A stretch of DNA of 64,000 bases. Origin: an uncultured Bacteriovoracaceae bacterium. Lineage in GTDB: Bacteria; Desulfobacterota; Desulfomonilia; UBA1062. The stretch is taken from positions 2,234-66,233 of the forward strand of contig CAZUDI010000001.1 of the NCBI GenBank assembly GCA_964618975.1, given 5' to 3'. Numbering within the stretch: the stretch's first letter is position 1; each line of letters begins with the position of its first letter. Below are positions 12,473 through 17,390 of this stretch, one piece after another. Both the position numbers and the translations under genes were made by a program. The notes beneath the pieces are model-generated. The model ran no database searches and had not been told where the DNA came from. It saw only the letters and a program-made list of their open reading frames with translations.

Positions 12473-13288
12473 CTACGGCCACTGAACGGGTCGGATACCC
12501 ACACATGCCGGCCGTGATTGCAGGATATCCTTCAAGCTGATCTCGGGGTGGTGATAGCGCGCATATCTTGCGGTCTTCCGGCCGTACTGGATCGCTTCCT
12601 TAGGGCACCACTGCAGGCAGGCAAAGCATTGCTGACAGCCGTGCATCCAGACCGGCCGCCCCTGATCGAGTACAATGTTGGAGGTCGGGCACACCTTCTG
12701 GCAGATCCCGCAGTGGTTGCAGCGCTCATCGGCCCAGAACCCCTTGTCCATCCCGGATACCTTCTCGAAGCTCAGCCGATAGATCGCGCTGAAGACGATC
12801 CTCTGCCAGAGGGGGCCCTTCTCGAGCGGCACAACCTGCCTGTCCCTGATCACGGGTACGATGGATGCAATCCTCTCCCGGGCGAGACCAAAACGACGCT
12901 CCTGCTCCTCCCGGGGCCCCGGACCACCCCAGGGGATATAGTTGGAGGGCATGGTGATGGCAAATCCCGCGCCCAGGTTCACACCACGGGTACGCATGAT
13001 CTCTCCCAGCTGCACCAGCGTGTTGGAAACCTGACCGGCATTGACCGCCACCGCGAAGACGTACGCCGGATGAGGCCCCTCCAGGGTTTCGACAAAGCGC
13101 ACAACCGCACCCGGCACCCCCCAGATATGGACCGGGAAGACCAGGCCGATCGTCTCAGCCGTCAGGTCCTGTGCCCCTGTACCTGCCGAGATCGAGACCG
13201 GACTCTCGGCCTCCAGGGCTGCGGCCAGTTCTCTGGCCACCCAGAACGAATTGCCAGTGCCCGTATAGTAGTAAATGCATGTGCCCAT
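12473..13288 (-). CDS. EFR1-family ferredoxin (flavodoxin-like domain + 2x[4Fe-4S] ferredoxin domain)
   Basis: Start MGTCIYYYTGTGNS follows a strong AAGGAGG SD. The C-terminal CNHCGICQKVCP and CQQCFACLQWCP motifs are present. Confidence 0.75.
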   Translation of the reverse strand: MGTCIYYYTGTGNSFWVARELAAALEAESPVSISAGTGAQDLTAETIGLVFPVHIWGVPGAVVRFVETLEGPHPAYVFAVAVNAGQVSNTLVQLGEIMRTRGVNLGAGFAITMPSNYIPWGGPGPREEQERRFGLARERIASIVPVIRDRQVVPLEKGPLWQRIVFSAIYRLSFEKVSGMDKGFWADERCNHCGICQKVCPTSNIVLDQGRPVWMHGCQQCFACLQWCPKEAIQYGRKTARYARYHHPEISLKDILQSRPACVGIRPVQWP

Positions 13289-13475
13289 GATCCCCTCCTT
13301 CATGCGATCCCCCACAAGGAGGACACTTCACCTCTCGTGAAGACCACGATCATAGCCCGTATCTCCTGAATAATACGACCGCGTTATCCCCCGCCACTCT
13401 CATGGTGAGCGATATGGAGAAGAAGGCGCTTGTTACCCCTTTATACACCAGACTCATCCCTCACGCCTACCTCGT

Positions 13476-15158
13476 TTAAAGGCGGGCCCCCTCCGTACAG
13501 GGGCTCACCTGACCTGATGGCGCACCGCCAATGCACACATGCAGGGAAGCCCCCGGCGGCACCATGGGCAGCGCCATGGCACCCTCGTCGACCGGGAGAA
13601 CGAAAATGAAGGGCCCGCGCGTCTGCAGGCAGGTGGCCAGGTCGTCATTCCGAGGCAGGGATCCGGCCGGCAGCCCGAAACTGCGTGCGATGGCCAGGTA
13701 GTCGGTGGGCTTCTCAAAGCGCGCGGCCGTGATGCGGCCGTGATGGAAGAGCGCCTGCTGCTGGCGCACGAGACCCAGATGACCGTTGTCTAGGATGAAG
13801 ACCTTGACGTTGCACCCAAGCTCGGCCAGCGTGGCGAGTTCCTGAATATTCATGAGCAGTGAGCCATCGCCGGTGAAACACAGGACGGTCTTGTCCGGGT
13901 GCATGAGGGCACAGCCGATGGCCGCCGGCAGGCCAAAACCCATGGTGCCGAAACCGCCCGAGGTGATCAGCTGGCCGGCATGCTGGAAGGGAAAGGCCTG
14001 GGTCGTCCACAGCTGATGCTGGCCCACATCGGTGGTCACGAGCGTATCCGTCCCGGCCGCCTCCCCGATGGCGGCGATGACACCCAGCGGCGCACGTTCG
14101 TCTAGCTGCGGGGGATGGGCCTGGCGGATGGTGGCGATCTCGCCTTGCCAGGAGGAGCGGCTGCGGGCAGAGACGCGCGGCACAAGCATGGCGAGCGCCG
14201 CGCGGGCGTCGGCCGTGATCGGGCAGCTCGATGGCCGAACCTTGTTGATCTCGGCCGGATCGATATCGATGTGGATCAGCTTGGCCTGGGGAGAGATCAG
14301 ATCGCTCGGGCTGGTAGCGCGATCATCGAAACGGGTGCCGATGGCAATGATGCAATCGGACCTGCCCAGGATCAGGTTGGTGGCATATTCCCCATGCATC
14401 CCGGGCAGACCGAGACAGGACCTGTCCGAGGACGGAAAGACCCCCTGGGCCATGAGGGTCACAACGGCCGGGATGCAGGCCTTGTGTGCAAGATCCCGTG
14501 CGAAGGCGGCGGCGCCTGCATGCCGAACCCCGCCGCCCACATAGAGCACCGGCCGGCGGGCGGCATCGATCATGGCCGCGGCCCGCGCAATACTCCCGGC
14601 ATGGGGCCTGGGGGGTGCGCCTCTTTCCCCGGGAGATGGCCACCGCTCAATGACTGTCGTCTCGAGCTGCACATCCCGGGGCACATCGATCAGCACCGGA
14701 CCCTGGCGGCCGGAGGCCGCCAGGGCAAAGGCATGCGGGATCAGGTCCGTCAGCTCACGGGCCTGGCGCACGCGCACGGCGTGTTTGGTGAAACCGGACA
14801 CCACCCCGCAGATATCGATCTCTTGGAAGGCATCCGTGCCGATGAGGGGGCGGGAGACCTGACCGGTGATGGCGATCAGGGGCACCGAGTCCCTGGAGGC
14901 GTCGGCAATGGCGGTCACGAGATTGGTGGCGCCCGGGCCCGAGGAGGCCAGGCAGACTGCCGGACACCCCGTCGAGCGTGCCATGCCCTGGGCGATAAAG
15001 GCCGCTCCCTGCTCATGGCGGGCCAGGATATGGCGGATGCCCCCCCGTGAGAGGGCGTCGTAGAGCGGCAGATTGGCCCCGCCGGGGATGCCGGCCACGA
15101 TGTGGATGCCCTGCCGCTCGAGGAGTTTCACAATAATTTCCGCGCCCGTCATTCGCAT
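13476..15158 (-). CDS. ilvB: thiamine-diphosphate enzyme, acetolactate synthase large-subunit type (IlvB/IlvG-like)
   Basis: The 560-aa protein begins MTGAEIIVKLLERQG and shows ALS-family conservation throughout. No ilvN follows, so the exact TPP-enzyme subfamily is uncertain. Confidence 0.7.
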   Translation of the reverse strand: MRMTGAEIIVKLLERQGIHIVAGIPGGANLPLYDALSRGGIRHILARHEQGAAFIAQGMARSTGCPAVCLASSGPGATNLVTAIADASRDSVPLIAITGQVSRPLIGTDAFQEIDICGVVSGFTKHAVRVRQARELTDLIPHAFALAASGRQGPVLIDVPRDVQLETTVIERWPSPGERGAPPRPHAGSIARAAAMIDAARRPVLYVGGGVRHAGAAAFARDLAHKACIPAVVTLMAQGVFPSSDRSCLGLPGMHGEYATNLILGRSDCIIAIGTRFDDRATSPSDLISPQAKLIHIDIDPAEINKVRPSSCPITADARAALAMLVPRVSARSRSSWQGEIATIRQAHPPQLDERAPLGVIAAIGEAAGTDTLVTTDVGQHQLWTTQAFPFQHAGQLITSGGFGTMGFGLPAAIGCALMHPDKTVLCFTGDGSLLMNIQELATLAELGCNVKVFILDNGHLGLVRQQQALFHHGRITAARFEKPTDYLAIARSFGLPAGSLPRNDDLATCLQTRGPFIFVLPVDEGAMALPMVPPGASLHVCIGGAPSGQVSPCTEGARL

Positions 15159-15184
15159 ACGATGCTCCTTCTTTAGGTACGAAA

Positions 15185-15226
15185 TAAAAAGGCCCCCGCC
15201 GGACTTGCCGGCGGGGGCCTTTTTGT
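15185..15226 (-). terminator. rho-independent terminator-like hairpin (GGCCCCCGCCGG-acttg-CCGGCGGGGGCC), A-run one side/T-run other (bidirectional); sits 27 nt upstream of ilvB
   Basis: This is a perfect 12-bp GC stem with flanking AAAAA and TTTTTG. It is a candidate attenuator for ilvB. Confidence 0.6.
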
Positions 15227-15242
15227 CTGTTTGACCCGGGCT

Positions 15243-15323
15243 TCAGCCGGCAGTCCGCATCCCCCTGAGAACGACCAGAAGCAGTGCTGCGCCAAGCTGA
15301 AGGTTGGGTACGTAATTATTCAT
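15243..15323 (-). CDS. putative leader peptide MNNYVPNLQLGAALLLVVLRGMRTAG (Leu/Val-rich) upstream of ilvB
   Basis: This 26-codon ORF is not in the track (under 60 aa). It is preceded by TTGACA-17-TATGGT and followed by the terminator hairpin. Confidence 0.25.
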   Translation of the reverse strand: MNNYVPNLQLGAALLLVVLRGMRTAG

Positions 15324-15330
15324 GCAATGC

Positions 15331-15359
15331 ACCATACGCAACGGTAGCGGATTTGTCAA
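15331..15359 (-). promoter_or_regulatory. sigma70-like promoter TTGACA-N17-TATGGT for putative ilv leader
   Basis: The -35 and -10 hexamers are spaced exactly 17 nt apart, 8 nt upstream of the leader ATG. Confidence 0.3.
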
Positions 15360-15372
15360 AGGTTTTGATTCT

Positions 15373-15527
15373 CAATCGCTTGCGGGGCAAATTCCCTTAG
15401 CACTTGCTGCGGCGGGGAGGGCCCGGCCTCTGTGTGGGTTCTTACCCATGATTCACCGGGGGTCGCCCCTGCTCCTTGCGATCTTAGGGGGTGCCAGGGC
15501 TTGCACCGGGGTTCATCCTCATGATTG
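15373..15527. repeat. MITE/REP-like repeat, copy C (composite, two tandem units)
   Basis: It reads AATCGCTTGCGGGGCAAATTCCC...CCCATGATTCA followed by GCCAGGGCTTGCACCGGGGTTCATCCTCATGATTGAAGG. Confidence 0.75.
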
Positions 15528-15552
15528 AAGGCCCTCTCGTTGAGCTTCCCCT

Positions 15553-16347
15553 TCAGACGGGCTCCCGCAGGTCCCTGGTGGTGAGTGTGCCCTGTTTGTA
15601 CGTAAGCTCCATCAGATCATGCGCCACGATGACGGGACCCCCGTACTCCATCGCACACAGGGAGCGCATATCATGCCCCTCGCAGTCCGGGTAGAGATGG
15701 GTCAGCACCACGGCCCGCACCCCGGCCAACGCGGCCACGCGCCCGGCCTCGGCGGCGCTGAGGTGTCCTGGAATTTCGCCCTGAGGAAATGAGGCCTCGA
15801 TTATGAGCAGTGAGGCCTCTCGGGCAACCTGCACGAGACCCTCGCAAAAGGCGGTGTCACCGGAAAAAACGTATGTCTTTCCCTCTGAAGCCAGTCGGTA
15901 GGCCACGGCAGGCAGATCGCGATGCTCCACGCCTGCCGCCTCGATCGTGAAGGCGCCCAGGGATAAGGTCTCCCGGGAAACTTCGGTGATCTCGAGAGGG
16001 TAACCCCGGGGTTCGATCCAGCGGTATACCTGTCCGAGCGCGGAAACAAAACGCTTAAGTCCGGCCGGTCCGACGATCACCAGAGGGGCCGTTCGCTGCC
16101 AGCCCGGGGTGTAGTTCAGGGCGAAGAGCAGGGCCACCAGGTCCAGGGAGTGATCGGGATGGATATGGGTGAGCAGCACGGCGTCGATCGCACGGTAGTC
16201 CACCCCGGCCATGGCCATGCGCTGCAGGGTGCCGCTGCCGCAGTCCACGAGGATGCGGGTCTCCCGGGCCTCGACAACGGCCCCAGAGGCTCCCCGTTCC
16301 TTTACCGGCACACAGGTACCCGTTCCCAGCAGAATGATCCTCGGCAT
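15553..16347 (-). CDS. MBL-fold metallo-hydrolase
   Basis: The 264-aa protein has an HIHPDH motif (HxHxDH) and a pattern like RNase Z or a beta-lactamase-like hydrolase. Confidence 0.75.
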   Translation of the reverse strand: MPRIILLGTGTCVPVKERGASGAVVEARETRILVDCGSGTLQRMAMAGVDYRAIDAVLLTHIHPDHSLDLVALLFALNYTPGWQRTAPLVIVGPAGLKRFVSALGQVYRWIEPRGYPLEITEVSRETLSLGAFTIEAAGVEHRDLPAVAYRLASEGKTYVFSGDTAFCEGLVQVAREASLLIIEASFPQGEIPGHLSAAEAGRVAALAGVRAVVLTHLYPDCEGHDMRSLCAMEYGGPVIVAHDLMELTYKQGTLTTRDLREPV

Positions 16348-17295: not shown

Positions 17296-17390
17296 TCCTC
17301 ATTCCAACGCTTCCTGCTCACACAAAGGGAGGACCGGGACGGCACCCTGCAGGGTGCCGTCCCGGTCCTTAGGCAGTGGTGACTTCCTGT

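Follow-up and report, generated by a model that had tools for sequence, protein, structure and literature searches.

In Escherichia coli, ilvBN is preceded by an annotated leader peptide, IvbL (MTTSMLNAKLLPTAPSAAVVVVRVVVVVGNAP), whose short Val/Leu-rich open reading frame (ORF) is followed, just before the gene, by a GC-rich terminator with a U-run. Comparable leaders, in which a short ORF with runs of Ile, Val and Leu codons is followed by a terminator, precede ilvB in the high-GC genomes of Corynebacterium, Mycobacterium and Streptomyces, and a three-hairpin model was proposed for the ilvB leader of C. glutamicum (PMC1262725, PMC10272879, PMC11857589). Here, we describe a leader of similar layout upstream of an acetolactate synthase (ALS) large-subunit gene in an uncultured Bacteriovoracaceae bacterium, placed by GTDB in Desulfobacterota. 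It lies in a stretch of 64,000 nucleotides (contig CAZUDI010000001.1, positions 2,234 to 66,233), hereafter the window, with a GC content of 61.6%. This leader is most probably a ribosome-mediated (leader-peptide) transcription attenuator that ties ALS expression to the supply of charged Leu- and Val-tRNA. An initial annotation, made from the letters of the window, had interpreted it as a branched-chain amino-acid attenuator, and our analyses support that interpretation, as an antiterminator is present, the ORF is conserved, and the hairpin is not merely the terminator of the metallo-beta-lactamase (MBL)-fold gene upstream.

E. coli IlvB shares 50.5% identity with the window ALS, which is of the same ALS type. 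The ivbL terminator (CCCCGCCGGCGCAAACCGGGCGGGG) shares a 10-nt core (CCCCGCCGGC) with the window terminator, and the last codons of the ORF complement the 5' arm of the terminator in both leaders, as UGCCGGC/GCCGGCA in the window and as GCGCCG/CGGCGC in E. coli and in three more distant ALS leaders (L001, L002, and L106). The two systems also differ, in that the window peptide is alike in composition alone, cannot be aligned with IvbL and is richer in Leu; the window ORF is apparently leaderless, while a ribosome-binding site (AAGG) precedes ivbL; and no ilvN follows the window ALS. A blastn search with the window leader against E. coli genomes gave no match. By analogy, we regard the window element as an ivbL-like attenuator, and it may be a diverged homolog of ivbL, although a 10-nt GC-rich core cannot prove descent. 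The actinobacterial leaders resemble that of the window in their short ORF, codon runs and terminator, but differ in phylum, in sequence and in preceding an ilvBNC operon.

The elements of the leader are listed below, with the number of family members in which an element is invariant counted over six sequences, the window and five relatives. Reading of the minus strand placed the promoter, the 26-codon ORF, the hairpin with its U-run, the AAGGAG and the ALS start where the initial annotation had reported them.

15354..15359, minus strand: -35 box TTGACA (read from the sequence and found by promoter scan).
15331..15336, minus strand: -10 box TATGGT, after a 17-nt spacer from the -35 box.
15243..15323, minus strand: leader-peptide ORF of 26 codons, MNNYVPNLQLGAALLLVVLRGMRTAG, with stop TGA at 15245-15243 (from the sequence and from homologous ORFs in five relatives); codons ATG AAT AAT TAC GTA CCC AAC CTT CAG CTT GGC GCA GCA CTG CTT CTG GTC GTT CTC AGG GGG ATG CGG ACT GCC GGC TGA.
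15267..15284, minus strand: regulatory codons 14-19, CTG CTT CTG GTC GTT CTC (LLLVVL), the putative ribosome stall site (from footprint-masked folding and an ORF survey).
15233..15311, minus strand: long hairpin P1, the anti-antiterminator (classical '1:2'), formed by CUUCAGCU/GGCUGAAG and a basal helix ACCC/GGGU (minimum free energy fold).
15239..15252, minus strand: region 2, UGCCGGCUGAAGCC, comprising codons 24-26, the stop and 4 nt beyond; partner of either region 1 (in P1) or the terminator 5' arm; invariant in six of six.
15206..15219, minus strand: region 3, GGCCCCCGCCGGCA, the terminator 5' arm and antiterminator 3' strand (masked folding and pair counts).
15182..15219, minus strand: intrinsic terminator, a perfect 12-bp GC stem with a 5-nt loop, followed by UUUUUAUUU (sequence, fold and alignment); its parts are stem GGCCCCCGCCGG at 15219-15208, loop CAAGT, stem CCGGCGGGGGCC at 15202-15191 and tail TTTTTATTT at 15190-15182.
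15165..15170, minus strand: Shine-Dalgarno sequence AAGGAG of the ALS gene (read from the sequence).
13476..15158, minus strand: monocistronic gene for the ALS large subunit, biosynthetic type, 560 amino acids (TIGR00118, 577.7 bits against a cutoff of 538.35).

The 175-nt leader RNA folds more stably than its dinucleotide shuffles (z = -4.1), and P1 together with the terminator, hereafter the OFF structure, constitutes the minimum free energy fold of every sequence folded, with P1 forming in all six family members. P1 spans from about codon 5 to just beyond the stop, enclosing the Leu/Val codons, while the terminator ends 25 nt before the ALS ATG. An automated terminator scan did not list the 15191-15219 hairpin, probably because the AAAAA/UUUUU flanks lengthen the stem and consume the T-run, judging from the criteria of the scan.

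The initial annotation had singled out a mutually exclusive antiterminator as the structure to seek in the folded leader, and such a structure exists in all six members. In it, region 2 (UGCCGGCUGAAGCC) pairs with the terminator 5' arm (GGCCCCCGCCGGCA) through 7 bp, 1 bp and 3 bp with a small inner hairpin, following the pattern UGCCGGC.G..GCC with GGC..C.GCCGGCA, at -21 to -25 kcal/mol. An antiterminator as stable arises in just 5, 16, 4, 0, 1, and 9 of 1000 dinucleotide shuffles of the same segment in the six sequences, respectively, and no further copies of region 2 were found across the window. To represent a translating ribosome, the RNA up to 11 nt past the A-site codon was forced to be unpaired and the transcript was cut before the terminator 3' arm. 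In the four sequences modelled, the antiterminator stays intact with the A-site up to codon 20-21, where the Leu/Val run ends, and no longer forms with the A-site at codon 22 or later, when the ribosome covers UGCCGGC; the antiterminator strand is left free by a ribosome stalled in LLLVVL, the last stretch for which this holds. With a ribosome at the stop codon the terminator is free in this folding model, and in the absence of a ribosome region 2 is sequestered in P1 and the terminator can form, in keeping with classical four-segment attenuation.

From the sequence elements, their conservation and these three mutually exclusive structures, all obtained in silico, we infer a transcription start, translation of the ORF, ribosome stalling and regulated read-through that would operate as follows. 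Transcription would begin at the leader ATG or a few nucleotides from it, and a ribosome would then translate the 26-codon ORF. With ample Leu and Val, it would reach the UGA and cover region 2, allowing the 12-bp GC terminator to form and transcription to end some 25 nt short of the ALS start codon. If either Leu or Val is scarce, the ribosome would stall in LLLVVL (codons 14-19), blocking the 5' arm of P1 and leaving region 2 free to pair with the terminator 5' arm once this is transcribed, so that no terminator would form and RNA polymerase would enter ALS. If the ORF is not translated, P1 would sequester region 2 and the terminator would form, making OFF the default state.

The composition of the ORF is consistent with such a role. 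Leu or Val is specified by 9 of its 26 codons, the LLLVVL run included; of the 5 Leu and 3 Val reported in the initial annotation, the Val count was borne out, but the Leu count is six. A survey of both window strands counted 695 ORFs of 15-45 codons that start with ATG, and of these the leader ORF alone (in two nested versions) contains a six-residue run of Leu, Val or Ile. The codons themselves are unusual for the window, as CTT provides three of the six leader Leu codons but 7% of the Leu codons in ten window genes, and the leader Val codons are GTA, GTC, and GTT, with none of the GTG that makes up 51% of Val codons in window genes. Use of rare codons is a known trait of some classical attenuators, and the bias of this leader could sharpen its sensitivity to tRNA charging; some of its Leu/Val codons are also constrained by P1 pairing. 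That the ORF might encode a hydrophobic membrane peptide or a toxin of small size was rejected on inspection, as the hydrophobic core is just 6-9 residues long and conservation is poor outside the Leu/Val run.

The predicted promoter, TTGACA-N17-TATGGT, is the top sigma-70-like match (10 of 12 positions) in a 6-kb scan that found three sites. Across the family, TTGACAAA of the -35 region is invariant in all six members and the 17-nt spacing between the boxes is kept in all six, while the -10 box varies among TATGGT, TAGGTA, TATTTT, and TATCTA. The leader ATG lies 7 nt past the -10 box in the window (7, 8, 9, 9, 7, and 9 nt across the six sequences), and none of the six has a Shine-Dalgarno sequence before the leader ORF. 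The constant distance of 7-9 nt is what a leaderless start would predict, and the leader ORF is probably leaderless, with transcription expected to start at or a few nucleotides from the A of the ATG. Since the window and L081 lack a second in-frame ATG, the first ATG would be the start common to the family. Two other candidate starts, an upstream in-frame ATG at 15335 and a TTG at 15359, were rejected because both fall within the promoter boxes (-10 and -35) and neither is conserved. In Deinococcus deserti, genes for amino-acid biosynthesis and for tRNA synthetases were predicted to have 14 leaderless leader peptides (PMC4007540). Starts in D. deserti were mapped by differential RNA-seq, whereas the leaderless start in the window is deduced from the conserved promoter-to-ATG distance, and the lineages differ.

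The relatives that define the family were found through the ALS protein. In a database of 5.8 billion proteins, the window ALS matched one truncated identical fragment and five clusters at 69-72% identity, with all further matches at 58% or below; a GTDB genome scan with the same protein gave 52% identity as the closest among the matches listed, and an exact-protein look-up returned no record. Some of the relatives' ALS proteins are labelled 'Deltaproteobacteria bacterium' in a source database. DNA fetched for the clusters yielded five further distinct leaders, L081, L083, L084, L086, and L087 (the L083 leader is the same as L088 and L103, and L089 is nearly identical to it). Directly upstream of ALS, all five carry the TTGACAAA-N17 promoter, a homologous 27-codon ORF of the pattern …NLQ…LLVVVV…AG ending in a stop, and the same terminator. 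Their predicted leader peptides are MEHYSTNLQSVVLQLLVVVVNRMPSAG (L081), MSKIMTNLQPDVLQLLVVVVLRMPSAG (L083), MNNTMTNLQSEILQLLVVVVLCLHAAG (L084), MKENMTNLQLNDLLGLVVVVLRMPSAG (L086), and MIKNMTKFQLYVLHLLVVVVLRMRSAG (L087).

Conservation of the small ORF, proposed in the initial annotation as a check on attenuation, is thus seen in the orthologous regions of five relatives, where the ORF, its frame and the Leu/Val run are all kept. The six-sequence leader alignment has 85% column identity and its sole indel inside the ORF is 3 nt long. Leu codons vary synonymously (CTC, CTT, and CTG), and the Leu/Val run is retained while other residues of the peptide vary. The ALS proteins of the six members are 68-88% identical overall. 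The gene upstream of the leader encodes a TetR regulator, an MFS transporter or a phospholipase A1 in the relatives and an MBL-fold hydrolase in the window, and the genes downstream across the loci encode ferredoxin, flavin oxidoreductase, hydrolase, GGDEF or MFS proteins. As the flanking genes differ by locus, the conserved unit is the leader plus ALS. A DNA-pattern scan of metagenomes, which fixed the -35 box and Val codons but left the pairing segments free, gave 16 matches, of which one is a true member (L103, identical to the L083 group). The leader family is rare, and the pattern scan added no sequences for covariation analysis.

All five relatives also carry a second unit between the terminator of the first unit and ALS, consisting of a Shine-Dalgarno sequence, an ORF encoding MKQ(I/L)LVLVLTVVLVVVVPPGRECRWD followed by a stop, and a terminator of its own (GGCCCCCGGCGG…CCGCCGGGGGCC). 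Its positions are as follows.

L081:2816-2960: second unit.
L083:2826-2965: second unit.
L084:2828-2970: second unit.
L086 and L087, equivalent positions upstream of gene start 1501: second unit.

In the ribosome-mask model, the second unit shows the same three-state behaviour as the first. Between the unit-1 terminator (GGCCCCCGCCGG/CCGGCGGGGGCC, window 15191-15219) and the unit-2 terminator (GGCCCCCGGCGG/CCGCCGGGGGCC, L081:2919-2947) there is a compensatory C-G to G-C swap, and each version matches its own antiterminator strand. A Pro-Pro-Gly motif occupies the last codons of unit 2 at which the antiterminator is still free, and recalls the IIIPPCG of the enterobacterial ilvGMEDA leader. The window has no second unit, and its terminator is of the unit-1 type. 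With 68-71% identity to the five relatives, which are 76-88% identical to one another, the window ALS is their outgroup, and all the more distant ALS genes examined carry a single leader. A single leader is probably ancestral, and the second unit was probably gained in the sister clade rather than lost from the window, a reading favoured by the single leaders of the outgroup ALS genes. In the Salmonella mgtCBR leader, two short ORFs each control a choice between stem-loops (PMC3641672), an arrangement comparable to the two-unit leaders of the relatives, while the window has one unit. However, mgtCBR senses ATP and proline rather than Leu and Val, and the regulated genes differ.

Beyond the family, a Val/Leu-rich ORF followed by a terminator also lies upstream of ALS in L001-L003 (ALS about 52% identical to that of the window) and in L106 and L107 (57%). 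The leader and terminator of L002 (L002:2775-2950), which carries the label of a Bacteroidota metagenome-assembled genome (MAG), are nearly identical to those of L001 (L001:2780-2950), which comes from a Gammaproteobacteria MAG, and they closely resemble E. coli ivbL; this suggests a mis-binned contig or a recent transfer. An independent example of a Val-rich ORF with a terminator occurs on an unrelated metagenome contig, L095, where a small ORF (…ILVVVVVVVVVQAGTAARTL, then a stop) on the minus strand at about 1533-1635 precedes a terminator-like hairpin.

Rfam scans, permissive on the leader region and at gathering level on the window and the relatives, included among the amino-acid leader families Leu_leader, His_leader (RF00514), Thr_leader (RF00506), and Phe_leader (RF01859). 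No family reached its gathering threshold in the window or in the leaders of the relatives; the best scores, 30.3 bits against a threshold of 49 for His_leader and 29.5 against 55 for Thr_leader, were driven by the terminator. A literature search, whose coverage of the literature is incomplete, found no such attenuator described for Deltaproteobacteria. The statement of the initial annotation that this organisation had not been described for such organisms agrees with both results, but the novelty that it implied was overstated, as the mechanism is textbook and common across the ALS clade. Without an Rfam match, the leader represents a small, lineage-specific family of a well-known type of switch.

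How far the alignment supports the proposed structures differs between the two folds. For the OFF structure, 96% of alignment cells are standard pairs, against 29-56% after displacement of the partners by 1-3 columns; paired cells amount to 98.6% in the terminator and 100% in the central helix of P1. One basal P1 pair is changed on both sides (A-U in four sequences and C-G in two), and eight OFF pairs are changed on one side to G-U, including C-to-U changes in the P1 5' arm of L087, L081, and L084. For the antiterminator, or ON structure, all 11 pairs form and are invariant in all six members, an invariance that fits a triple constraint from coding and from two alternative pairings.

Several points weigh against attenuation as the explanation. 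Covariation over the six sequences is weak, with 38 of 500 shuffles reaching the observed covariation score, and as the antiterminator pairs never vary, their conservation cannot discriminate and yields no covariation support. The basal P1 helix of the window (ACCC/GGGU) is one register off that of the relatives (GACAAA/UUUGUC), and this shift lowers the column-based score of the window helix, though the helix still pairs. Without a Shine-Dalgarno sequence, translation of the leader hangs on the leaderless start, which itself depends on a predicted promoter. The case for attenuation therefore draws on sequence conservation, on folding energetics and geometry, and on analogy rather than covariation. 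Finally, mutation of the candidate regulatory codons in the ilvB leader of Streptomyces coelicolor left regulation unaffected (PMC1262725), and therefore an attenuator-like anatomy does not guarantee classical attenuation.

The S. coelicolor result and the lack of covariation in the antiterminator would both be accommodated if the leader acted on ALS without codon-specific attenuation, either because translation of the ORF modulates termination or Rho access regardless of Leu and Val, or because a protein is involved, as suspected for the S. coelicolor ilvB leader. Such a mode of action, however, would not predict that the Leu/Val run sits exactly at the last antiterminator-compatible positions, that this run is conserved while other residues vary, that the same Leu/Val logic recurs in the second tandem unit and in the leaders of distant ALS genes, or that the leader is enriched in rare codons, and we consider it unlikely.

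It is also conceivable, though in our judgement very unlikely, that the element is a structured RNA, for instance a riboswitch or a leader that binds a protein or tRNA, in which the small ORF is not translated. The reading frame is kept with a single 3-nt indel, and the CTGGTCGTCGTTGTC stretch is conserved in the apical part of the hairpin, where pairing is not; further, sequence-unrelated leaders before homologous ALS genes have the Leu/Val bias in common, no Rfam family matches, and the -10 box is followed at a constant 7-9 nt by the ATG, as a leaderless start predicts. These observations stand against the absence of a Shine-Dalgarno sequence before the ORF, the strong folding of the RNA (z = -4.1) and the location of much of the ORF within a conserved hairpin, all of which a structured RNA would explain.

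Extremely improbable is a third alternative, that the hairpin is an ordinary or bidirectional terminator of the upstream MBL-fold gene and the ORF and promoter match arose by chance. In its favour, the hairpin resembles a generic strong intrinsic terminator, the best Rfam near-matches are due to the terminator alone, and the three sites of the promoter scan compare with a chance expectation of 1.9. Against it, 334 nt that include the conserved promoter separate the end of the MBL-fold gene, upstream, from the hairpin, the promoter-ORF-terminator unit precedes ALS where the upstream gene encodes TetR, MFS or PLA1, and the U-run is followed after 25 nt by the ALS ATG, which leaves too little space for another promoter. 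The upstream genes vary while the leader and ALS stay together, and therefore the hairpin is not merely the terminator of the upstream gene, a role ruled out by synteny across the loci. This possibility had been raised in the initial annotation itself, and the comparison came out for attenuation, with a promoter intervening and the unit travelling with ALS.

The initial annotation had noted the lack of an adjacent ilvN, which we confirmed: neither ilvN nor an ACT-domain gene adjoins the window ALS, and tblastn of the 64-kb window found no ilvN (two query proteins) and no second ALS. The same holds across the clade formed by the window and the five relatives, where the large-subunit gene is monocistronic with no ilvN alongside (window region 12473-15158). 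By contrast, in L106 and L107, whose ALS is 57% identical, ilvN (ACT_AHAS_ss) lies immediately 3' of ALS.

The remaining neighbours of the leader and ALS in the window, including GGDEF, XdhC-like, SufS, FeoB and ferredoxin genes, are unrelated to branched-chain amino-acid synthesis. The next gene downstream of ALS encodes an EFR1-family ferredoxin, and an MBL-fold/RNase Z-like hydrolase gene lies upstream of the leader on the minus strand (15553-16347). The best named homologs of the window SufS, 58-59% identical, are in Desulfomonilia and Deltaproteobacteria MAGs. A 193-nt GC-rich spacer (15360-15552) extends from the stop of the MBL-fold gene to the leader promoter and lacks a counterpart in the relatives. 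It matches no Rfam family, and the folding signal is weak, with z = -2.2 for the whole intergenic region. Farther away, at 17330-17369, the terminator scan found a 40-nt perfect palindrome (AGGACCGGGACGGCACCCTGCAGGGTGCCGTCCCGGTCCT; 18-bp stem, 4-nt loop) between convergent ORFs, which may be a bidirectional terminator.

We tentatively suggest a broader scheme for this deltaproteobacterial lineage, one that we see as possible rather than probable. In this scheme, the leader mRNA would be truly leaderless, with the AUG at its 5' end; the sister clade would have added a Shine-Dalgarno-dependent Leu/Val unit ending in Pro-Pro-Gly, giving a two-stage serial attenuator; attenuation would replace ilvN feedback for an orphan ALS; and the attenuator-ALS cassette would be mobile as a module. 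If true, the leaderless start would tie ribosome loading to the first nucleotides made by RNA polymerase.

Taken together, the putative attenuator would extend classical Leu/Val attenuation of ilvB-type ALS to an uncultured deltaproteobacterial (Desulfobacterota) lineage, and would offer a compact natural example in which regulatory codons, stop and antiterminator strand are packed into 26 codons. The small ORF and hairpin should accordingly be annotated as a cis-regulatory leader of ALS and not be taken for a terminator belonging to the gene upstream. Two features exceed what routine annotation would show, namely the apparently leaderless ORF start and the contrast between single and tandem units among close relatives. 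The lack of ilvN is relevant to the control of a stand-alone ALS large subunit, and the single arrangement in the window, as against the tandem one in its relatives, bears on how serial attenuators may sharpen a response.

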